Of a stretch of DNA of 64,000 nucleotides, positions 1-45,013 are shown piece by piece (position 1 is the first letter of the stretch; each line of letters starts with the position of its first letter). Position numbers and translations under genes: made by a program. Location of the stretch: the NCBI RefSeq assembly GCF_058153355.1, contig NZ_CM177019.1; one strand, written 5' to 3'. The notes under the pieces are model-generated. The model saw nothing but the letters and a program-made list of their open reading frames with translations, was not told the DNA's origin and made no database searches.

Positions 1-63
1 ATAGTCCTTCGCTCTCCGGCCACTTGCAGGCTATGATAGTTCTCCAGCCACAGGAGAACGTTA

Positions 64-957
64 ATGAAACCGCAGGTTTATCACGTCGATGCTTTTACCG
101 CTCAACCGTTTCGCGGCAATTCTGCCGGTGTTGTTTTTCCCGCCGATAAACTTAGCGAAGCGCAAATGCAGCTTATCGCCCGCGAATTAGGTCATTCGGA
201 AACTGCTTTTCTGCTGCACTGCGACGACAGCGATGTACACGTTCGATACTTTACGCCAACGGTTGAAGTGCCAATTTGCGGTCACGCAACGGTGGCTGCG
301 CACTATGTGCGTTCAAAGGTATTAGGTTTGGGAAATTGCACGGTCTGGCAAACGTCGCTGGCAGGAAAACATCGCGTGACTATCGAAAAGCACAACGATG
401 ATTATCGTATTTCGCTGGAACAAGGTACGCCGGGCTTTGAGCCACCGCTGGAAGGTGAAACACGTGCGGCGATTATCAACGCATTGCATCTTACCGAAGA
501 CAATATTCTGCCGGGTTTGCCAATCCAGGTGGCAACCACAGGACACTCAAAAGTGATGATCCCGTTGAAACCAGAAGTGGATATCGACGCCCTTTCGCCT
601 GACCTTGCTGCGCTGACCGCTATTAGTAAACAGATTGGCTGCAATGGTTTTTTCCCGTTCCAGATCCGCCCTGGCAAAAATGAAACCGATGGTCATATGT
701 TCTCACCAGCGATAGGTATTGTGGAAGATCCGGTGACCGGGAATGCCAATGGCCCGATGGGCGCATGGTTGGTACATCACAACTTACTACCCCATGATGG
801 CAGCGTGTTGCGTGTTAAAGGCCATCAGGGGCGCGCACTGGGGCGTGACGGCGTGATTGATGTGACGGTGACAATTCGAGATAACCAACCGGAGAAAGTT
901 ACCATTTCCGGCACGGCGGTGATTCTTTTCCATGCTGAATGGGCCATTGATTTTTGA
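64..957 (+). CDS. yddE: PhzF-family isomerase-like protein YddE
   Basis: 297-aa ORF from track; PhzF/DapF-like fold signature (CGHAT motif); conserved position next to nhoA as in K-12. Confidence 0.85.
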   Translation: MKPQVYHVDAFTAQPFRGNSAGVVFPADKLSEAQMQLIARELGHSETAFLLHCDDSDVHVRYFTPTVEVPICGHATVAAHYVRSKVLGLGNCTVWQTSLAGKHRVTIEKHNDDYRISLEQGTPGFEPPLEGETRAAIINALHLTEDNILPGLPIQVATTGHSKVMIPLKPEVDIDALSPDLAALTAISKQIGCNGFFPFQIRPGKNETDGHMFSPAIGIVEDPVTGNANGPMGAWLVHHNLLPHDGSVLRVKGHQGRALGRDGVIDVTVTIRDNQPEKVTISGTAVILFHAEWAIDF

Positions 958-964
958 TACCGTT

Positions 965-1040
965 GCCTGATGCGCTTCGCTTATCAGGCCTACAACCGGG
1001 CTAATGTGGGCCGGTTGTAGGCGTTTACGCCGCATCCGGC
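965..1040. repeat. REP/BIME element (two inverted palindromic units gcctgatgcg...cgcatccggc)
   Basis: Seen in sequence: GCCTGATGCG and its inverse GCCGCATCCGGC flanking a short spacer in the convergent yddE/nhoA intergenic region. Confidence 0.6.
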
Positions 1041-1052
1041 CCCTGGCACAAA

Positions 1053-1898
1053 CTATTTCCCCGCCTCCGGATGCGTATCAAACGCCGCCATCACCAACGC
1101 CAGTTCATCCACAGTAAAGCCATGCTTTGCGTCATCTACGCCCAGACCAAACTGCTCCTGCATCACGGCATATAACGACGCCACATCCGGTAGATTTCGC
1201 TGCTCCACTGCATGTCCATTTTCATAATGGGTGAAATGAAAATTGGTCAGTGTCAGTTTGCCACCGTCCGGCAAATGGCGGCACATCAGCAAATGATGGC
1301 GAAAATGCGATTGCGGCCAGTGCGCAGACCAGAAATTGCCCATTATATAATCGCTTTGTTGCTGCTCGCAGAGATCAAAACGGTACATCGACTGCCAGTG
1401 CTGATGATGATTAAACTGCAACACCCAATCATCACCCTCCTGTAACAACCGATACTCTCCGTGTGGCGTGATCTGCACGAGATCGGGAACTAAACGAATC
1501 GGCGCGGTTAGCGTCTGTCCACCGAAACCGACATCAGCAATCCATTTTTCCCCTTCCAGTTCCACCAACAACAAACGATGGGTGCGCGGCGGTAATGCTG
1601 GCGGATTAGATAACACTACGCGCCCTAACAGACTGCGTACCTGAAAACCCAGCTCGCGTAACACCCGCTCAAACACGCCATTCTGCTCAAAGCAGTAACC
1701 ACCACGCCGGGCGAGCACCAATTTCTCTTCCAGCGATTGATCATCAAGCTGCATTTCTCTCGGCAGTAAAACATCGAGATTTTCAAATGGAATGGTGCAA
1801 TTGTGTTTCAGGTGTAATGCGCGCAGCGTTTCGATATTGACCGCAGCCGCTCCCGACCAGTTAATGCGGGTAAAATAGTGATTCAGAATGGGCGTCAT
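1053..1898 (-). CDS. nhoA: N-hydroxyarylamine O-acetyltransferase
   Basis: 281-aa ORF, arylamine N-acetyltransferase family (catalytic Cys in GGYCFEQN context); expected length and neighbourhood. Confidence 0.9.
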   Translation of the reverse strand: MTPILNHYFTRINWSGAAAVNIETLRALHLKHNCTIPFENLDVLLPREMQLDDQSLEEKLVLARRGGYCFEQNGVFERVLRELGFQVRSLLGRVVLSNPPALPPRTHRLLLVELEGEKWIADVGFGGQTLTAPIRLVPDLVQITPHGEYRLLQEGDDWVLQFNHHQHWQSMYRFDLCEQQQSDYIMGNFWSAHWPQSHFRHHLLMCRHLPDGGKLTLTNFHFTHYENGHAVEQRNLPDVASLYAVMQEQFGLGVDDAKHGFTVDELALVMAAFDTHPEAGK

Positions 1899-2072
1899 CA
1901 GGCGTTTCCGTTTGTGGTTTTCTCAATTTATAACCTGGAATAGACGCCGCACCGGCTATTTTGTGCGATCGCGGACATGCATCACGTTCGCAAATCGCCA
2001 ATCCCGTTAATTTCGTTGCTTATTGCGTTACGAGCTACGCTTTTAAAACACCCTTCATAGCGAGGCGATATC

Positions 2073-2642
2073 GTGAGCCGATTCATCCCTGTCGAATTAC
2101 ACCATGCCAGCCGTCTGTTAAATCATGGCCCAACTGTCTTGATCACCAGTTTCGATGAGCAATCCCAGCGGCGTAACATTATGGCAGCAGCTTGGTCAAT
2201 GCCGGTGGAGTTTGAACCGCCACACGTGGCAATTGTGGTAGATAAATCGACATGGACCAGGGACTTGATTGAACGTAATGGTAAGTTTGGCATCGTTATC
2301 CCGGGTGTTGCAGCAACTAACTGGACGTGGGCGGTGGGAAGTGTCTCGGGTCGAGAAGAAGATAAATTTAATTGCTATGGCATTCCGGTTGTGAAAGGTC
2401 CGGTGCTTGGATTGCCGCTGGTTGAAGAGAAATGTCTGGCATGGATGGAGTGTCGATTGCTACCAGCGACTTCTGCGCAAGAAAAATACGATACGCTATT
2501 TGGCGAAGTGGTATCGGCAGCGGCAGACGCACGAGTATTTGTCGAAGGCCGCTGGCAGTTTGATGATGACAAACTCAATACACTACATCATTTAGGTGCT
2601 GGCACGTTTGTTACCAGCGGGAAGCGAGTTACGGCAGGTTAA
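2073..2642 (+). CDS. yddH: flavin reductase-like domain protein YddH
   Basis: 189-aa ORF; flavin reductase-like fold; K-12 synteny. Confidence 0.8.
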   Translation: MSRFIPVELHHASRLLNHGPTVLITSFDEQSQRRNIMAAAWSMPVEFEPPHVAIVVDKSTWTRDLIERNGKFGIVIPGVAATNWTWAVGSVSGREEDKFNCYGIPVVKGPVLGLPLVEEKCLAWMECRLLPATSAQEKYDTLFGEVVSAAADARVFVEGRWQFDDDKLNTLHHLGAGTFVTSGKRVTAG

Positions 2643-2645
2643 GCA

Positions 2646-2873
2646 TTACATGCTGTAACCAGGTTTCTTTATCAGCGTCTCCATTTGGGGCGCAATTTCG
2701 GCGTCCCAGACAGCTTGCCATGATTCTGGTTGAATCTGCTGTAGAGCAATGCTTATCGAACTGTCTTTACTGTTCAGATGGCGAATAATAACGTCGGTAA
2801 TATCTGCAGCAAGTGCTGCTTTTTGTTGTTCGTCCAGTTCACGTGGAAAACATTTAATGTCTATGTGCGGCAT
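2646..2873 (-). CDS. pptA: tautomerase PptA (4-oxalocrotonate tautomerase family)
   Basis: ORF-track entry 2646..2912 trimmed to internal Met giving MPHIDIKCF... (catalytic Pro1 after Met removal), 75 aa; CAT start codon on minus strand at 2871-2873. Confidence 0.85.
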
Positions 2874-3177
2874 GATTGTGCTCCTTTTGAAAGATGTCAG
2901 TAAAATTAACACACGTTGTGAATGTTATGTGTCCGGTGATGCTTTTTTACGGCAATAATGCCTACTTGAATTTGTACAGATTTGTACTACACCCTTTTAA
3001 ATAAAGCGCCAACAAAAAACGTCAACTTGCAGAATATATTCTTCGCCAACATGCCATTAAGAAACATCAAGTTCCCGGCTTGCCAATTTATTAACGCCCA
3101 TTATAGTTATTCTTGCCCTCACAAAAATTTTCATCCGTAATTACCCCCAATAAAAGTCCATTCTGGAGACGCTTAAG

Positions 3178-5154
3178 ATGCAGCTTAATCATATTGTTAA
3201 AAGTCTGCTAATAACGGGATTATTCACCACCAGTTCTTTGCCACTCCTCGCGGCGGAAGCCCCTAAAGACGCCACCGCAGCCACGCAACAAGCAAACAAT
3301 TTACTCTACAACCAGTTGCCGTTTTCTGATAACACTGACTTTACTGATGCCCATAAAGGTTTTGTTGCCCCTATCCCTCAAGACGTGATTAAGGGCGAAA
3401 AAGGAAATGTTATCTGGGATCCACAACAATACGCTTTTATTAAAGAAGGTGATAAAGCCCCTGATACGGTGAATCCAAGTTTATGGCGTCAGGCGCAACT
3501 GATAAATATCAGCGGATTATTTGAAGTGACTGAAGGTGTCTATCAGATTCGTAACCTCGATTTATCAAATATGACCATCATTGAAGGCAAAGAGGGTATT
3601 ACCATCGTTGATCCCCTTGTTTCAGCAGAAAGAGCCAAAGTGGGTATGGATCTCTATTACAAAAATCGCGACAAAAAACCGGTAGTAGCGGTTATCTACA
3701 CACACAGTCATGTCGATCACTACGGTGGTGTTCGCGGCGTAATTGATGAAGCTGACGTTAAATCAGGCAAAGTTAAAATCTACGCGCCAGCCGGATTTTT
3801 GGAGGAAGCCGTTTCCGAAAATATTATGGCTGGCAATGTGATGAGCCGACGAGCCAGTTATATGTATGGCAACTTATTGAAACCTGATGTTAAAGGCCAG
3901 GTTGGCGCGGGACTGGGAACAACCACTTCAGCAGGAACGGTCACGTTGATTGCTCCTACTAACTACATCACCAAAACCGGACAAAAAGAAACTATTGACG
4001 GGTTGACCTATGATTTCTTGATGGCGCCAGGCTCTGAAGCACCTTCTGAAATGCTGTGGTTTATTGAAGAAAAGAAACTGATCGAAACCGCCGAAGATGT
4101 TACGCATACCCTTCATAACACCTATTCGCTGCGTGGGGCTAAAATTCGCCAACCGCTGCCGTGGTCAAAATATATTAACGAAGCTCTCAATTTATGGGGA
4201 GATAAAGCCGAGATTATTCTCGCTCAACATCACTGGCCAACCTGGGGCAACGATAACGTGGTCAAACTGCTTAAAAGCCAGCGTGATTTGTATCGTTACA
4301 TCAATGATCAAACTCTGCGTATGGCAAATCAAGGGATGACCCGTGATGAAATTGCCGCAAACTTTAAACTGCCCTCTTCACTGGCTAATACCTGGGCGAA
4401 TCGCGGCTATTACGGTTCGGTAAGTCATGACGTGAAAGCAACTTACGTGCTTTATCTCGGCTGGTTTGATGGTAACCCCGCGACGCTTGATGAACTGCCA
4501 CCAGAAGAAGGCGCAAAAAAATTCGTCGAGTATATGGGCGGTGCTGATGCCATTTTACAGAAAGCCAAACAAGATTATGACCAGGGTAATTTCCGCTGGG
4601 TTGCTCAGGTTGTAAGTAAGGTGGTGTTTGCGGATCCAAACAACCAGGCAGCGAGAAATCTGGAAGCTGATGCGCTTGAGCAGTTAGGCTATCAGGCTGA
4701 ATCTGGGCCGTGGCGTAATTTTTATCTCACAGGCGCACAGGAATTGCGTAATGGCGTACAAAAATTACCAACACCAAATACTGCCAGCCCTGACACCGTG
4801 CGTGCAATGACGCCAGAGATGTTCTTTGATTATCTTGCCGTCCATATTAATGGTGAGAAAGCGGCAGATGCCAAAGCTGTACTGAATTTCGATTTTGGTG
4901 AAGATGGCGGCACCTATAAAGTGGAGCTTGAAAATGGTGTTCTCAATCATACCGATGGTGTAAAGGCTTCGGATGCTGATGCCACTATCACTCTGTCTCG
5001 TGATGTATTGAACAAAATTGTACTAAAAGAAGAGACGCTGAAAGAAGCCACGGACAAAGGAGATGTCAAAATTACTGGCAATGCGGAAAAACTCAACGAG
5101 CTGTTAGGTTATATGGATAATTTTGAATTTTGGTTCAATATAGTGACACCATAA
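3178..5154 (+). CDS. secreted alkyl/aryl-sulfatase homologue (metallo-beta-lactamase fold, YjcS/SdsA1-like); accessory gene absent from K-12 at this locus
   Basis: 658 aa; N-terminal signal peptide (MQLNHIVKSLLITGLFTTSSLPLLAAEAP); metallo-beta-lactamase metal motif THSHVDHYGG; overall length and C-terminal region consistent with alkyl sulfatase dimerisation and SCP2-like domains; GGAGA RBS upstream. Confidence 0.8.
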   Translation: MQLNHIVKSLLITGLFTTSSLPLLAAEAPKDATAATQQANNLLYNQLPFSDNTDFTDAHKGFVAPIPQDVIKGEKGNVIWDPQQYAFIKEGDKAPDTVNPSLWRQAQLINISGLFEVTEGVYQIRNLDLSNMTIIEGKEGITIVDPLVSAERAKVGMDLYYKNRDKKPVVAVIYTHSHVDHYGGVRGVIDEADVKSGKVKIYAPAGFLEEAVSENIMAGNVMSRRASYMYGNLLKPDVKGQVGAGLGTTTSAGTVTLIAPTNYITKTGQKETIDGLTYDFLMAPGSEAPSEMLWFIEEKKLIETAEDVTHTLHNTYSLRGAKIRQPLPWSKYINEALNLWGDKAEIILAQHHWPTWGNDNVVKLLKSQRDLYRYINDQTLRMANQGMTRDEIAANFKLPSSLANTWANRGYYGSVSHDVKATYVLYLGWFDGNPATLDELPPEEGAKKFVEYMGGADAILQKAKQDYDQGNFRWVAQVVSKVVFADPNNQAARNLEADALEQLGYQAESGPWRNFYLTGAQELRNGVQKLPTPNTASPDTVRAMTPEMFFDYLAVHINGEKAADAKAVLNFDFGEDGGTYKVELENGVLNHTDGVKASDADATITLSRDVLNKIVLKEETLKEATDKGDVKITGNAEKLNELLGYMDNFEFWFNIVTP

Positions 5155-5165
5155 ATTTACTGTAT

Positions 5166-5192
5166 ACCGGGCAGGTATCCTGCCCTTTTTTG
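5166..5192 (+). terminator. intrinsic terminator after sulfatase gene
   Basis: GGGCAGG-tatc-CTGCCC hairpin followed by TTTTTT, 12 nt downstream of the stop codon. Confidence 0.65.
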
Positions 5193-5200
5193 GTTAAAAA

Positions 5201-6298
5201 ATGGCTGAACAAAGAAAAACGCATCACTCGTGGAAAACCCGCCGCGATATGGTTATTCGCGGCATGACGATTAGTTTGCCATGGTTTGCTTTTATCAATG
5301 TCAGTTTTGCATTGATGATTTTGCTGCGCCGTGTTCTGTTTAATGACCTTACTCCTCCCTGGTTAAATGAAAAAAGCCTTATACATTCTATTGATATATC
5401 TGCAACGGGTATTCTGCTGATTTGCAGTGGTTTACTACTCATCCCTCGGCAAAAAACATTACCTATCCAGGTGCTATTAGTTGCCCTGAGCCTGCTATGG
5501 TCATGGTGTAGTTATCACTTTATTGCGTACTGGACGCTGCAGTTTGCTTATCCACTATGTGTATTATTAATGCTTAGTGGCGTTGTCGCACTTTATTTCC
5601 ATACCCCATCATTGCTCGCATTTGTCATTCCCTTATGGTTCACCACTCCAATAGCGAGCCTTATGCTTAATCAACAGGTTAATATTCATTTTGCTGTTAT
5701 CTGGTGTATTTTTTCACTGGCGTTATATGGTGGGCGACTCATTTTGTTACGTTGGTTTGAAGAAGCATGGGAACAAAACAGCTATAACAACCAGTTAATT
5801 AATCGCCTTGATGCATTAGCACATCGTGATCCTTTAACTGGGATAGCAAACCGACGAGCAATGAACAGTATCTTACACGACGCGATAGATAACGGCGGGT
5901 CATTTGCTCTTATTATGCTGGATGTCGATTTTTTTAAACGCTACAACGACACCTACGGGCATCCTGCTGGGGATCGTTGTCTGATACAAGTTGCCGACGC
6001 TCTACAGCATTCAACTCGCCAGTCGGAGGATGTTGTTGTCCGTTATGGTGGCGAAGAGTTTGCCATCATACTTTTTAATGCAACATTGCCGGAAGCAGAG
6101 ACGGTAGCAGCCAGAGTGAAGCAAGAACTTAAACTGGCAGCTATCCCGCATCAGGCATCTGCTGTTAATGCATTCGTTACGGTTAGTCAGGGGATTACCT
6201 GTTCAGCTCCCGCAAAAACGGCTGAACAAATTATTTCAGATGCCGACGCCGCGTTATACCGGGCGAAAGAAAGTGGGCGAAATCGATGGGAAAAATAA
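5201..6298 (+). CDS. membrane-anchored diguanylate cyclase (GGDEF domain, GGEEF active site); accessory, not one of the K-12 DGCs
   Basis: 365-aa ORF; N-terminal about 200 aa strongly hydrophobic (multiple predicted TM helices); C-terminal GGDEF domain with RYGGEEF motif, DxLTG-like HRDPLTGIANRR upstream; true start may be an internal Met (codon 17 or 22). Confidence 0.8.
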   Translation: MAEQRKTHHSWKTRRDMVIRGMTISLPWFAFINVSFALMILLRRVLFNDLTPPWLNEKSLIHSIDISATGILLICSGLLLIPRQKTLPIQVLLVALSLLWSWCSYHFIAYWTLQFAYPLCVLLMLSGVVALYFHTPSLLAFVIPLWFTTPIASLMLNQQVNIHFAVIWCIFSLALYGGRLILLRWFEEAWEQNSYNNQLINRLDALAHRDPLTGIANRRAMNSILHDAIDNGGSFALIMLDVDFFKRYNDTYGHPAGDRCLIQVADALQHSTRQSEDVVVRYGGEEFAIILFNATLPEAETVAARVKQELKLAAIPHQASAVNAFVTVSQGITCSAPAKTAEQIISDADAALYRAKESGRNRWEK

Positions 6299-6916
6299 TT
6301 AAATGATTCCATTCCTCTTTAGTATCCCTTTTAGCTTTGGTATCTGACATACAGCATCAGCGATCGCACTGATATTCGTGGCATTATCCTGAAACCATTC
6401 ATGCCCAGGCCCCCATGTGCGCATAGTGCAAAGATAACAGTCCACCAGCGTTAGTTGCTCACCAAACGCATAAGGTTCAGCGGTCAATTGTGAATTCAGC
6501 CAGATATAAAGCGATTTGCGATATTCAATAACATTCTTCTTCAACTGTTCAGGTGCGTCAGGAGCCCAACGCTCAGGGTAATCGGCGAAGGTAAACGTTG
6601 GATAGACATTAGCGACCAGCCAGACCAATAACCGTTGAAACTGCTGACGTTCGGCGTGCCCAATCGGTGGCGAAAAATTCGGGTGGCGGTCGAGAACCAT
6701 CAATGCAATCGCCGCTGTCTCCGTCATAATCTCGCCATTTTCCAGCACCATTGTCGGAATCTGGCACAACGGGTTCAGGTTTTTCAGTATCTCGCGAGAA
6801 GTTCCCTCGCGATCAAACCCACTGACATCAACGAACTGATAAGGAATATCAGCCAGTGATAGCATCAGCTCACTGATTGTAGAGCCCCATCCGGGTACGC
6901 CATACACCTTAATCAT
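6299..6916 (-). CDS. yncG: glutathione S-transferase homologue YncG
   Basis: 205-aa ORF, GST fold; adjacent to ansP as in K-12. Confidence 0.85.
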   Translation of the reverse strand: MIKVYGVPGWGSTISELMLSLADIPYQFVDVSGFDREGTSREILKNLNPLCQIPTMVLENGEIMTETAAIALMVLDRHPNFSPPIGHAERQQFQRLLVWLVANVYPTFTFADYPERWAPDAPEQLKKNVIEYRKSLYIWLNSQLTAEPYAFGEQLTLVDCYLCTMRTWGPGHEWFQDNATNISAIADAVCQIPKLKGILKRNGII

Positions 6917-7182
6917 ATGCCCCTCACAATCTTTTAAAGATTAAGTGTAGGACAGTACACAGGTTAACCAGCAAAAGGATTTGTCATTTTTTCGTCAGTT
7001 GTATTATTCCCCTTCAGGATTGTAAGGGGATGTTTTGCATCGTTTATCGATAACGGGTAGGATGCTGCGCCGATAGTTTTATACCCATAAAGAATAATGG
7101 TGATAACTATCATCGCCAGGATGAATAAACATTGTTCATGGCAACTTATATGACTTTTTCATTAAAGCAATCAGGGAGAGCA

Positions 7183-8682
7183 ATGAGTAAACACGACACC
7201 GACACTTCAGATCAACACGCCGCGAAACGTCGCTGGCTTAATGCCCACGAAGAGGGGTATCACAAAGCGATGGGCAATCGCCAGGTACAGATGATCGCCA
7301 TTGGCGGCGCGATTGGCACCGGCTTGTTTTTAGGTGCAGGAGCCCGACTGCAAATGGCGGGGCCAGCACTGGCACTGGTCTATTTAATCTGCGGCCTGTT
7401 TTCATTTTTTATTCTGCGTGCATTGGGTGAGCTGGTGCTACACCGGCCTTCCAGTGGCAGTTTTGTCTCTTATGCCCGTGAGTTTTTAGGAGAGAAAGCC
7501 GCTTACGTTGCAGGCTGGATGTACTTCATCAACTGGGCGATGACGGGGATTGTCGATATTACCGCCGTCGCGCTGTATATGCATTACTGGGGTGCGTTTG
7601 GCGGCGTGCCGCAGTGGGTCTTTGCGCTCGCTGCGCTGACCATCGTTGGCACCATGAATATGATCGGTGTGAAATGGTTTGCGGAGATGGAGTTCTGGTT
7701 TGCGCTTATTAAAGTGCTCGCCATTGTGACCTTTTTGGTCGTGGGTACAGTGTTCCTCGGTAGTGGTCAGCCGCTGGATGGCAACACCACTGGCTTTCAT
7801 TTAATCACCGATAATGGCGGCTTCTTCCCCCATGGTTTGCTACCTGCGCTGGTATTGATTCAGGGCGTAGTGTTTGCTTTTGCCTCCATTGAAATGGTGG
7901 GTACAGCTGCCGGAGAATGTAAAGATCCTCAGACCATGGTGCCTAAAGCCATTAACAGTGTGATTTGGCGTATTGGCCTGTTTTACGTCGGCTCCGTGGT
8001 GTTGCTGGTTATGTTATTGCCGTGGAGTGCGTATCAGGCTGGGCAAAGTCCGTTTGTGACGTTCTTTTCCAAACTGGGCGTGCCGTACATCGGCAGCATT
8101 ATGAACATTGTGGTGCTGACCGCTGCGCTCTCCAGCCTGAACTCAGGTCTGTACTGCACCGGACGTATTCTGCGCTCGATGGCGATGGGCGGTTCCGCAC
8201 CGAGTTTTATGGCGAAAATGAGCCGTCAGCATGTGCCGTATGCCGGGATCCTGGCGACGCTGGTCGTTTATGTTGTTGGCGTATTCCTTAACTATCTGGT
8301 GCCGTCGCGCGTATTTGAGATTGTGTTGAACTTCGCGTCGCTGGGAATCATCGCTTCATGGGCGTTTATCATCGTGTGCCAGATGCGCCTGCGTAAAGCG
8401 ATTAAAGAAGGCAAAGCAGCGGATGTCAGTTTTAAACTGCCTGGCGCGCCCTTCACTTCCTGGCTGACATTACTGTTTTTACTGAGTGTCCTTGTGCTGA
8501 TGGCGTTTGATTACCCGAACGGGACTTATACCATTGCGGCGCTGCCGATTATCGGTATTCTGCTGGTTATAGGCTGGTTTGGTGTGCGCAAACGCGTTGC
8601 TGAAATTCACAGCACTGCGCCAGTCGTCGAGGAAGATGAAGAACAACAGGAAATTGTGTTTAAGCCAGAGACGGCGAGTTAA
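7183..8682 (+). CDS. ansP: L-asparagine permease (APC family amino-acid transporter)
   Basis: ORF-track 7132..8682 trimmed to Met with GGGAGAG RBS (MSKHDTDTS...), 499 aa; 12-TM APC transporter sequence. Confidence 0.9.
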   Translation: MSKHDTDTSDQHAAKRRWLNAHEEGYHKAMGNRQVQMIAIGGAIGTGLFLGAGARLQMAGPALALVYLICGLFSFFILRALGELVLHRPSSGSFVSYAREFLGEKAAYVAGWMYFINWAMTGIVDITAVALYMHYWGAFGGVPQWVFALAALTIVGTMNMIGVKWFAEMEFWFALIKVLAIVTFLVVGTVFLGSGQPLDGNTTGFHLITDNGGFFPHGLLPALVLIQGVVFAFASIEMVGTAAGECKDPQTMVPKAINSVIWRIGLFYVGSVVLLVMLLPWSAYQAGQSPFVTFFSKLGVPYIGSIMNIVVLTAALSSLNSGLYCTGRILRSMAMGGSAPSFMAKMSRQHVPYAGILATLVVYVVGVFLNYLVPSRVFEIVLNFASLGIIASWAFIIVCQMRLRKAIKEGKAADVSFKLPGAPFTSWLTLLFLLSVLVLMAFDYPNGTYTIAALPIIGILLVIGWFGVRKRVAEIHSTAPVVEEDEEQQEIVFKPETAS

Positions 8683-8690
8683 TTGCAAAA

Positions 8691-8718
8691 TTGCCCGGCT
8701 ATGTGCCGGGCAAATTCA
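8691..8718. terminator. bidirectional hairpin terminator between convergent ansP and yncE
   Basis: GCCCGGC-tatgt-GCCGGGC stem-loop flanked by A/T runs. Confidence 0.55.
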
Positions 8719-8794
8719 GATTAGAAACGAGGGTGCCGGATGCGGCGTGATAAAAGTCAGGCAAGTCTCTCAGTTTTCACCCTCGCCATATCTA

Positions 8795-9856
8795 TTACAA
8801 CGCAATACGAATCACATCGTCCGGCTGAGTAGCTTCCTGCTGTTTAGTGGATTTTTGTTTCACACTGACATACAGCGTTTTGCCATCGGCAGACAGCGCC
8901 AGGCTGTTCGGATGGGTCGGCGTATCGAACGTTTTCACCACTTTATAGCTTTTCGCGTCAATCACACTGACTTTACCTGCCTGACGATGCGTTACGTAGG
9001 CTTCATTACGCGCTGGGTTAAACAGCACAGCCAGTGATTCCGGTGCCGCAACCTTCGCCAGAATATTGCCATTACGGGTATCGACCACTAGCACTTCTGC
9101 CGCTTTAGAATCGGTGATAAATGCACGCTGCCTGGCGGTATCGAGGCTGATGTTGATAAAGAAGTGCTCTTTGCCATCATCCAGCAGCTTTTTACGGCTG
9201 AGGATTTTATTGTCGGCGGTGTCGATGGTAATCAATTCACCATCGGCATTAGTGGTGTAAAGACGTTTGCCTTTGCTATCCAGCGCCAGACCGGTACTCA
9301 TTTTACCGGTGTTCTGGATGGCGGTTTTCAGTTTGATATTCTCGCCATCAACGACCCAAATCACGCTCTCTTTACCAATACCACTGATGTAAACGGTGTT
9401 CGTGGCATCATCAGCTACCAGCTCACGCGGTTGCAGCGGGCGCACCTCTTCCGTGCGCTTACGATCATCCAGCACCAGACGGCCTTTCACTTCGCCCGTT
9501 TTGGCATCTATCGCCGTGACCGCGCTGTTTACGGTGTTACCAAACCACAACGTCTGAGTCGTGTTATTGATGGTGGCACCAAACGGCTTGAGATCGTTAT
9601 GGATCGCCTGCGTCACTTCCAGAGTGACCGGATCAAGACGATAAACCACGCCACCTTTATCCAGTTTGCGGCTTTGCGAAGTGGCGAGCCACAGCGCGTT
9701 TTCTTGCTGGCTATAAGCCATTTCGTAGGCACCTTTACCTACCGCTTTACGCAGCATTTCTTCTGCGGCCTGCGTACTGAATGATGAAGCAACAAGCAAT
9801 GAACCTAACAGTAATGAACCACGCAGGCGCGATGAAAACAGATGACGTAAATGCAT
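8795..9856 (-). CDS. yncE: periplasmic PQQ-like beta-propeller protein YncE
   Basis: 353 aa with signal peptide; repeated beta-propeller blades; K-12 synteny. Confidence 0.9.
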   Translation of the reverse strand: MHLRHLFSSRLRGSLLLGSLLVASSFSTQAAEEMLRKAVGKGAYEMAYSQQENALWLATSQSRKLDKGGVVYRLDPVTLEVTQAIHNDLKPFGATINNTTQTLWFGNTVNSAVTAIDAKTGEVKGRLVLDDRKRTEEVRPLQPRELVADDATNTVYISGIGKESVIWVVDGENIKLKTAIQNTGKMSTGLALDSKGKRLYTTNADGELITIDTADNKILSRKKLLDDGKEHFFINISLDTARQRAFITDSKAAEVLVVDTRNGNILAKVAAPESLAVLFNPARNEAYVTHRQAGKVSVIDAKSYKVVKTFDTPTHPNSLALSADGKTLYVSVKQKSTKQQEATQPDDVIRIAL

Positions 9857-44155: not shown

Positions 44156-45013
44156 TTAACCAGCTATACTCGCACTCGTCGGCCCTGTTTCAATACTACC
44201 CACAATATCAATAATGTGCCCCCAGAACATATCATCATCGTTATAATATAATGAATAATCTCTATTATAATCCATAGTCAACTCAACAAGATTTATTCTG
44301 CTAACAAACATATCTTCTGTAATTTCTTCATCTTCTTCATCTTGAAGCCAGTCATTGGCCAATTCAGTTAATTGTTCTGCGGCATATTGCCTAAACTCCT
44401 GATCTTTTTGTTGCATATGACTACATAAAAATCGCAGATTTTCAAAAGCCTGTTGCCAGGTATATCTATCATTCTTATCTACTTCCATAGATACAGAAAT
44501 ATTCTGATCATTCCATTTCACTTCCCCGCTAAAACAGGAGTAGTCTTTATTAAGCACGAAAGTCCCCAATTGCTGATCTTCAACAACAACTGGTTTGCGA
44601 TATTCTTTCTGAATATTGAGCAGTTCCTCACACTGAACATGACTTTCAAGAACCTCAAGAACATAAAACCGATTATAAAACTCGGCTAACTTTCCTTCCG
44701 GCACGGTCCTGTCAATCAAATCTCGTACTCTCAGGCGATATATACCACCAGACTGCATATTAAACGGCCACGCACAGCCTTGAGTTTTCTCATTTTCTTC
44801 TGTTATCAACCAGTTGAGTCGTCCATCTCCAACGTGAATTTCTCCCGTCGTCAGACTCTTCCAGGCGAGTAAGTGTTCAACCGCTGTCCAGTAATTATCA
44901 CCGTTACTCTTACCCGCGCCACCGCCAGTATCACTAAGAAGAACGATAATTTCTTCTTCTGTATCTTTAAATGTATGACTAAATTTTTTGTATTCTTCAG
45001 AATTTAAGTCCAT
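44156..45013 (-). CDS. orphan hypothetical protein (285 aa, acidic, cytoplasmic) in low-GC islet; no family assigned
   Basis: Uninterrupted 858-nt ORF with own promoter space (45014-45163) downstream of the hrpA terminator; no signal peptide or TM segment; Asp/Glu-rich with acidic stretch QDEEDEEITEDMF; AT-rich codon usage unlike flanking core genes; no K-12 counterpart at this position. Confidence 0.65.
   Translation of the reverse strand: MDLNSEEYKKFSHTFKDTEEEIIVLLSDTGGGAGKSNGDNYWTAVEHLLAWKSLTTGEIHVGDGRLNWLITEENEKTQGCAWPFNMQSGGIYRLRVRDLIDRTVPEGKLAEFYNRFYVLEVLESHVQCEELLNIQKEYRKPVVVEDQQLGTFVLNKDYSCFSGEVKWNDQNISVSMEVDKNDRYTWQQAFENLRFLCSHMQQKDQEFRQYAAEQLTELANDWLQDEEDEEITEDMFVSRINLVELTMDYNRDYSLYYNDDDMFWGHIIDIVGSIETGPTSASIAG

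Follow-up and report, generated by a model that had tools for sequence, protein, structure and literature searches.

The closest described counterpart of the gene considered here is the accessory cyclase gene dgcY. The SalmoNet2 preprint, and also its journal version, cite Povolotsky & Hengge 2016 for 'yreP (dgcY in E. coli)' and the alkyl-sulfatase 'yjcS (EcSMS35_1714)' having first been described together, in strains SMS-3-5 and CE10, and report that typhoidal and extraintestinal serovars of Salmonella are enriched for the sulfatase-yreP pair. Another accessory protein of this kind, DgcX, has a domain of about 270 aa with eight TM helices that is common to YcdT and YeaI, a type named MASE4; it retains a canonical RxxD motif at the inhibitory site (I-site), and its gene adjoins lambdoid prophage DNA, mostly at attB. 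In Pseudomonas aeruginosa the membrane cyclase ImcA forms homodimers by means of its TM domain, on which activity depends, and a membrane-bound partner, IsmP, controls it. The locus analyzed here matches the first of these in gene content and order, departs from the second in domain type, TM count and location, and finds in the third its best available mechanistic analogy, albeit one that need not extend to homology of the TM domains.

Identity and genomic setting of the gene

The gene occupies positions 5201..6298 (+ strand) of the window, by which we mean the whole 64,000-nucleotide stretch of contig NZ_CM177019.1 that was analyzed. The ORF list gives it 365 codons from an ATG at 5201, with the stop codon included in the interval, just as the first-pass annotation had it, and the frame ends one base before the convergent yncG. 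Given the strong Pfam matches to both a MASE5 and a GGDEF domain, this ORF is not a chance reading frame, and its product is 98% identical to the SMS-3-5 protein WP_000236738.1 encoded at the same locus. RefSeq annotates a shorter form of 349 aa (a 1050-nt CDS) beginning at the alternative start codon M17 (5249..5251, +). Comparison with homologues favors the 365-aa form from 5201 over this start, since residues 1-16 appear conserved: W11, six residues before the Met, recurs in the long forms from Enterobacter, Hafnia and Salmonella, and a 64%-identical homologue likewise starts with MA.

The gene order in the window is yddE, nhoA, yddH, pptA, alkylsulfatase, dgcY, yncG, ansP and yncE. E. coli SMS-3-5 shows the same arrangement of pptA, an alkyl/aryl-sulfatase (WP_001176575.1), the GGDEF protein (WP_000236738.1, found in strain CM2 too), yncG and ansP. 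The window protein is 98% identical to an E. coli cluster of 475 members; the names given in the protein-cluster source are generic ('GGDEF domain-containing protein'), with the name DgcY absent, and the exact protein is absent from a collection of 15 billion sequences. In K-12, the interval between yncG and pptA holds yncH, rhsE', ydcD, yncI' and ydcC, an Rhs remnant, and dgcY is absent at this locus, in agreement with the earlier proposal that the gene adds to the K-12 set of cyclases. On the strength of the synteny and of the secondary citation in SalmoNet2, the window gene is orthologous to dgcY (called yreP in Salmonella), an accessory cyclase of MASE5-GGDEF architecture already known from Escherichia. 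The first-pass annotation had left its identity among the accessory cyclases undecided, naming DgcX-type and DgcY-type proteins for comparison; the assignment to this group stands, with DgcY as the member concerned. DgcX was rejected on domain type (MASE5 in the window protein), on the number of TM helices (six versus eight) and on location, as no prophage genes are present at the yncG-pptA locus in the window.

Elsewhere in the window, a 285-aa ORF between ydcF and hrpA (44156..45013, - strand) combines DUF7021 and DUF2262 domains and has no NCBIfam match. In SMS-3-5, ydcF and hrpA are just ~270 nt apart, which makes this ORF an extra gene in the lineage of the window.

The MASE5 sensor and the cyclase domain

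The N-terminal ~200 residues had been noted as several hydrophobic helices resembling no sensor domain that could be named. The helices are confirmed: hydropathy delineates six TM segments (residues 24-42, 63-81, 91-109, 115-133, 138-156 and 165-183), and AlphaFold2 predicts six helices (14-41, 55-80, 86-111, 116-131, 135-157 and 162-207) in the full-length and domain-alone models alike, with a pLDDT of 84-86. The region does have a name, namely the Pfam membrane sensor domain MASE5 (PF17178, E 5e-45, model positions 2-192 of 192), which covers residues 25-206 (5273..5818, +). In the AlphaFold2 model the sixth TM helix continues as a single stalk helix (162-207) into the GGDEF domain. This stalk carries a conserved WF[DE]EAW motif, of which W185-F-x-E-A-W190 is invariant in a family alignment of 26 sequences with identities down to 47%. 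Six K/R among 23 residues make the N-terminus basic, and by hydropathy all loops of the domain but one have at most nine residues. The N-in topology combined with six helices places the cyclase domain in the cytoplasm and leaves no periplasmic domain. From this absence of a periplasmic domain we infer that perception of the signal has to occur within or at the membrane, unless the signal comes from another membrane protein.

MASE5 is a small family: of 1.84 billion cluster representatives, 57 match at E <= 1e-3, most of these being fragments, and every full-length relative found ends in a GGEEF domain. A fold search of AFDB50 recovered the six-helix module in cyclases of Klebsiella, Serratia, Citrobacter, Salmonella, Hafnia, Photobacterium, Aeromonas and Legionella, together with weaker matches to histidine kinases. 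The corresponding search of the PDB with MASE5 alone gave no significant match, the top TM-score being 0.51 (E 1.3), to the six-TM domain of ImcA.

The GGDEF catalytic domain spans residues 207-362 (5819..6286, +; Pfam PF00990, E 2e-48, model positions 1-161 of 161) and far exceeds the cut-off of the generic NCBIfam GGDEF model TIGR00254 (157 versus 37.4 bits). Among the NCBIfam equivalog models (SiaD, DgcN, DgcQ, AdrA and others) none comes near its cut-off for DgcY; SiaD, the second-best NCBIfam match of the domain, reaches 153 of the 290 bits required and thus falls far under its cut-off. The A-site GGEEF (G283-F287; 6047..6061, +), read from the sequence and invariant in 26 homologues, lies within the motif RYGGEEF (residues 281-287, nt 6041-6061), which is intact as previously noted, and the substrate- and metal-binding residues are kept. 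Indeed D241, N249, D258, R281, G283-F287 (E285 and E286 included), K356 and R360 are all invariant in the family alignment. We take D241, N249, D258, R281, K356 and R360 to correspond to PleD D327, N335, D344, R366, K442 and R446, which serve in metal, guanine and phosphate binding. Since the residues that bind metal, guanine and phosphate are all invariant, DgcY is expected to be a catalytically competent cyclase.

A conserved variant of the inhibitory site

Upstream of the A-site the protein reads T-R273-Q-S-E-D277-V-V-V-R-Y-GGEEF. A gap-free HMMER alignment of the segment ...HSTRQSEDVVVRYGGEEF of DgcY with ...GCSRSSDLAARYGGEEF of WspR (3bre, 3i5c) lays the R-S-S-D of WspR on Q274-S-E-D277. 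The position of the canonical Arg is thus held by Q274, and R273 stands one residue upstream of it. This bears out the earlier reading of RQSED as a non-canonical RxxxD (R273-D277; 6017..6031, +): the Asp is in the canonical register, five residues before GGEEF, and the Arg is displaced to D-4, with Gln at D-3 and no RxxD at the correct register. A shifted-register RxxD/RxxE motif (R273...E276) was rejected, in that position 276 varies (A, D, E, H, N, V) and D277 is invariant. The third primary I-site residue has a putative equivalent in R305 (6113..6115, +), an invariant column of the 26-sequence alignment, which we take to correspond to PleD R390 by counting the register ungapped from GGEEF against the PleD sequence. 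All three of R273, D277 and R305 are invariant columns set between variable ones.

The arrangement R-x-x-x-D, five further residues and GGEEF recurs in 120 of the 120 best homologues, and the RxxxD spacing is kept even in the five most distant MASE5 representatives, which are 25-38% identical in the sensor domain. For background we used 93 GGDEF motifs from 80 unrelated genome loci; these came from a profile scan of genome contigs with the family alignment, a scan dominated by matches to the generic V[ASV]RYGGEEF pattern, in which only E. cloacae and one Arcobacter locus supplied full-length relatives. Canonical RxxD accounts for 68 of the 93 motifs and RxxxD alone for seven (~7%), six of the seven belonging to non-MASE5 proteins. 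The non-MASE5 proteins with RxxxD only, from Aeromonas caviae, Burkholderiales MAGs, the cyanobacterium Spirulina subsalsa and Rhizobium (five loci), mostly keep the downstream Arg. In the literature covered, a search on RxxxD and c-di-GMP returned nothing on a variant GGDEF I-site.

Judged by this pattern of conservation, the RxxxD of DgcY is a conserved minority variant of the whole family rather than the decay of one gene. The term 'degenerate', which the first-pass annotation had applied to the site, is accordingly the wrong word, because R273 and D277 are invariant and the RxxxD is family-wide. The site is best described as a variant that appears to keep two of the three primary I-site residues along with a neighboring basic residue. 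Because R273, D277 and R305 are strictly conserved, it seems likelier that the site retains some function than that it has none, be it contact with a partner or the binding of c-di-GMP in a changed geometry or at a changed affinity. Thus the conservation would speak for some I-site function, whereas the missing canonical Arg would speak for a feedback that is weakened or lost.

Association with an alkylsulfatase and transcription signals

The description of the cyclase gene as an orphan is doubtful. It starts 46 nt downstream of a gene for an alkyl/aryl-sulfatase of the metallo-beta-lactamase type (658 aa; 3178..5154, +; identified from the RefSeq annotation of its orthologue), and the two co-occur in E. 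coli: among 5,426 complete genomes dgcY is found in 443 (~8%), in 436 of them near full length, and the sulfatase is full-length in 439. The pairing is repeated in Leclercia adecarboxylata, where the sulfatase lies 40 nt upstream of a MASE5-GGDEF gene within the tynA-feaB locus, and in Salmonella, where it is the divergent neighbor of the MASE5-GGDEF gene at yet another locus. The Leclercia and Salmonella sulfatases combine Lactamase_B, Alkyl_sulf_dimr and Alkyl_sulf_C domains and are 85% identical to that of the window. That the pair recurs in three genera, each time at a different locus, is a hint that the two genes are functionally coupled. It is not obligatory, since no sulfatase stands beside the MASE5-GGDEF homologues of Enterobacter, Hafnia, Pantoea, one metagenomic relative and the 64%-identical relative. 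By eye, the sulfatase has an apparent signal peptide at its N-terminus, and the enzyme is probably periplasmic. The two partners evolve at very different rates, the sulfatases being 85% and the cyclases 48-51% identical across genera (L091, 2984..6050; L085, 2736..6128).

In the gap that separates the sulfatase and dgcY coding sequences, a hairpin scan identified a strong element resembling an intrinsic terminator (5169..5191, +), GGGCAGG-TAT-CCTGCCC followed by TTTTTT, with a stem of seven pairs (six of them G-C) at 5169-5185 and a T-run that ends 9 nt before the ATG. It is kept in SMS-3-5, and Leclercia has a GC hairpin without the T-run at the equivalent spot. A scan of the + strand upstream of dgcY found no sigma-70-like promoter. 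The gene may be transcribed by read-through from the sulfatase or from a non-consensus promoter.

Distribution and divergence

Among complete E. coli genomes the closest copy of dgcY is 98.1% identical, and for the core neighbors yncG-ansP-yncE the best identity is 97.7%, so that dgcY has diverged in step with its surroundings. From these values, which concern positions 1..9856, the window seems to derive from a somewhat divergent Escherichia lineage, about 2% away from every complete E. coli genome. The 64%-identical homologue is flanked immediately by yddH and yncG, with no sulfatase at its side. The in-step divergence and the position of this homologue suggest that dgcY is a long-standing resident of the locus that was lost in many E. 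coli lineages, rather than a recent acquisition.

Several further observations concern the fate of the pair in E. coli. In about 85 additional genomes the sulfatase is represented by short partial matches alone, the examples listed consisting of its first ~70 nt (3178..3250) at 100% identity; this remnant looks like a deletion scar of the sulfatase-dgcY pair. In one chicken isolate (NZ_CP033635.1, 2246262-2248135) dgcY is split by an IS1A element, shortened forms of the protein of 328 aa and 243 aa are common clusters, and one of 447 dgcY matches is on a plasmid.

Proposed mechanism and alternative explanations

Taken as a whole, we hold it very probable that the gene is a dgcY orthologue in which a six-helix MASE5 domain is joined to an intact cyclase with a family-wide variant feedback site, and that it forms a unit with the alkylsulfatase. 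By analogy with the general GGDEF mechanism and with the ImcA homodimer, the TM and stalk helices would mediate dimerization of DgcY. Perception of a signal in or at the membrane would then shift the register of the stalk, and this shift would bring two GTP-loaded GGDEF domains together to yield c-di-GMP. The feedback site would be formed by the family-wide R-x-x-x-D plus R305, and dgcY and the upstream alkylsulfatase constitute a two-gene unit at the variable yncG-pptA locus.

The conservation of the I-site could be read in other ways. Conceivably, and we give this a tentative place beside the preferred reading though with less confidence, the shifted Arg abolishes binding of c-di-GMP at the site, leaving DgcY and the MASE5 family insensitive to feedback and able to drive high c-di-GMP, along the lines of the relieved product inhibition suggested in the first-pass annotation. 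Mutagenesis of PleD and DgcA reportedly showed the canonical I-site Arg to be needed for inhibition, and at that position (D-3) 119 of the 120 closest homologues have Gln, Thr or Ser, one having the canonical Arg in addition to the displaced one. A survey of Pantoea YR343, moreover, gives its MASE5-GGEEF protein no '(RxxD)' flag, unlike others. A dead site should nevertheless drift, yet R273, D277 and R305 have stayed invariant among their variable neighbors; and at D-4, where DgcY has R273, 28 of the 68 canonical RxxD proteins of the background sample carry Lys or Arg, so that this position may itself face the ligand. That the invariant residues instead form a surface for protein-protein contact, and no feedback site at all, strikes us as unlikely. 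Such a use of an I-site has a precedent in P. fluorescens, where that of GcbC reportedly serves in contact with LapD (Dahlstrom et al. 2016), and ImcA, the nearest structural analogue, is itself under the control of a partner. Nonetheless, no partner gene other than the sulfatase is conserved in the nine gene contexts inspected, and the sulfatase is apparently exported and would thus have no access to a cytoplasmic surface.

A different kind of doubt concerns the gene as a whole, which might be a poorly expressed relic that makes little c-di-GMP and is being lost from E. coli. The terminator-like hairpin directly upstream and the failure to find a promoter-like site would fit this, as would the small fraction of complete E. 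coli genomes that keep the gene, the IS1-interrupted copy, the 243-aa and 328-aa forms and the more than 80 genomes in which only the ~70-nt sulfatase remnant is left. We nevertheless consider it unlikely: the ORF is intact, its divergence is like that of the flanking core genes, all catalytic and family-invariant residues are kept, and according to the Pantoea YR343 survey the promoter of the Pantoea homologue is active in biofilm and on roots.

Returning to the reading of DgcY as a working cyclase with a modified feedback site, its association with the sulfatase allows a bolder extension, which by analogy would cast the pair as a surfactant-response circuit. The exported sulfatase would act on alkyl sulfates, and MASE5 would sense the amphiphile, its alcohol product or the perturbation of the membrane and thereby turn on c-di-GMP production, as an enterobacterial counterpart of the detergent-induced aggregation of Pseudomonas; the RxxxD plus R would then represent a distinct class of allosteric site in GGDEF domains, differing in its feedback properties and present also in the unrelated Aeromonas, Burkholderiales, cyanobacteria and Rhizobium. 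We regard this scenario as speculative and rather improbable. As a hypothesis only, an input from amphiphiles or membrane stress might suit a loop-less membrane sensor.

With regard to annotation three points are settled: this is dgcY rather than dgcX, the sensor is MASE5, and the non-canonical I-site is a trait of the family and not of the strain. Since DgcY had been described before, its sensor is a named domain and its I-site spacing is common to the family, there is little out of the ordinary in the finding. To judge from the literature searched, neither the family-wide RxxxD variant nor the repeated partnership with a sulfatase has been documented yet, and we offer both as modest leads. 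The conserved RxxxD + R triad provides a natural test of how far the GGDEF feedback site tolerates changes in spacing, and the recurrent pairing with an SDS-type alkylsulfatase is the sole available hint to the signal of MASE5. Both would alter the picture of c-di-GMP signaling only if experiments on them turned out positive.

Comparison with known systems

An SDS-type alkylsulfatase and a c-di-GMP cyclase also occur in one organism in P. aeruginosa, which reportedly undergoes an SDS-induced, SiaD-dependent aggregation as part of its SiaD/SdsA1 detergent response. SiaD, however, is soluble, is governed by SiaABC partner switching and is not known to adjoin the sulfatase, so that the likeness to the dgcY locus is one of analogy and not evidence of homology. 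PleD and WspR share with DgcY the GGDEF fold, the Asp five residues before GGEEF and the putative R390-type downstream Arg. DgcY differs from them by the displacement of the other Arg one residue upstream (RxxxD), by the lack of a receiver domain and by its input from a membrane domain. DgcX, known from EAEC and O104:H4, belongs like DgcY to the accessory GGDEF proteins of E. coli, is anchored in the membrane and has an intact A-site, but its eight-TM MASE4-type domain, its canonical RxxD and its proximity to prophage DNA have no equivalent in DgcY.

Closer in overall architecture is ImcA (PDB 8wcn), the best PDB match to DgcY by both sequence and fold, in which six TM helices are likewise followed by a GGEEF domain. 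The sequence match (E 6e-32; profile E 6e-45) is aligned from TM5 onward only, and the TM domains have a weak fold likeness, as noted above; Foldseek aligns 369 columns of the full-length DgcY model with ImcA. The I-site of ImcA reads RRPLD, a canonical RxxD with an extra Arg upstream, and a flexible hinge is present in ImcA where a continuous stalk helix is predicted for DgcY. Closest of all is the DgcY of SMS-3-5 and CE10 (YreP in Salmonella), which the window gene resembles in locus, gene order, MASE5-GGDEF architecture and 98% identity; the public annotation of that protein places the start codon 16 residues further in than that of the window ORF.
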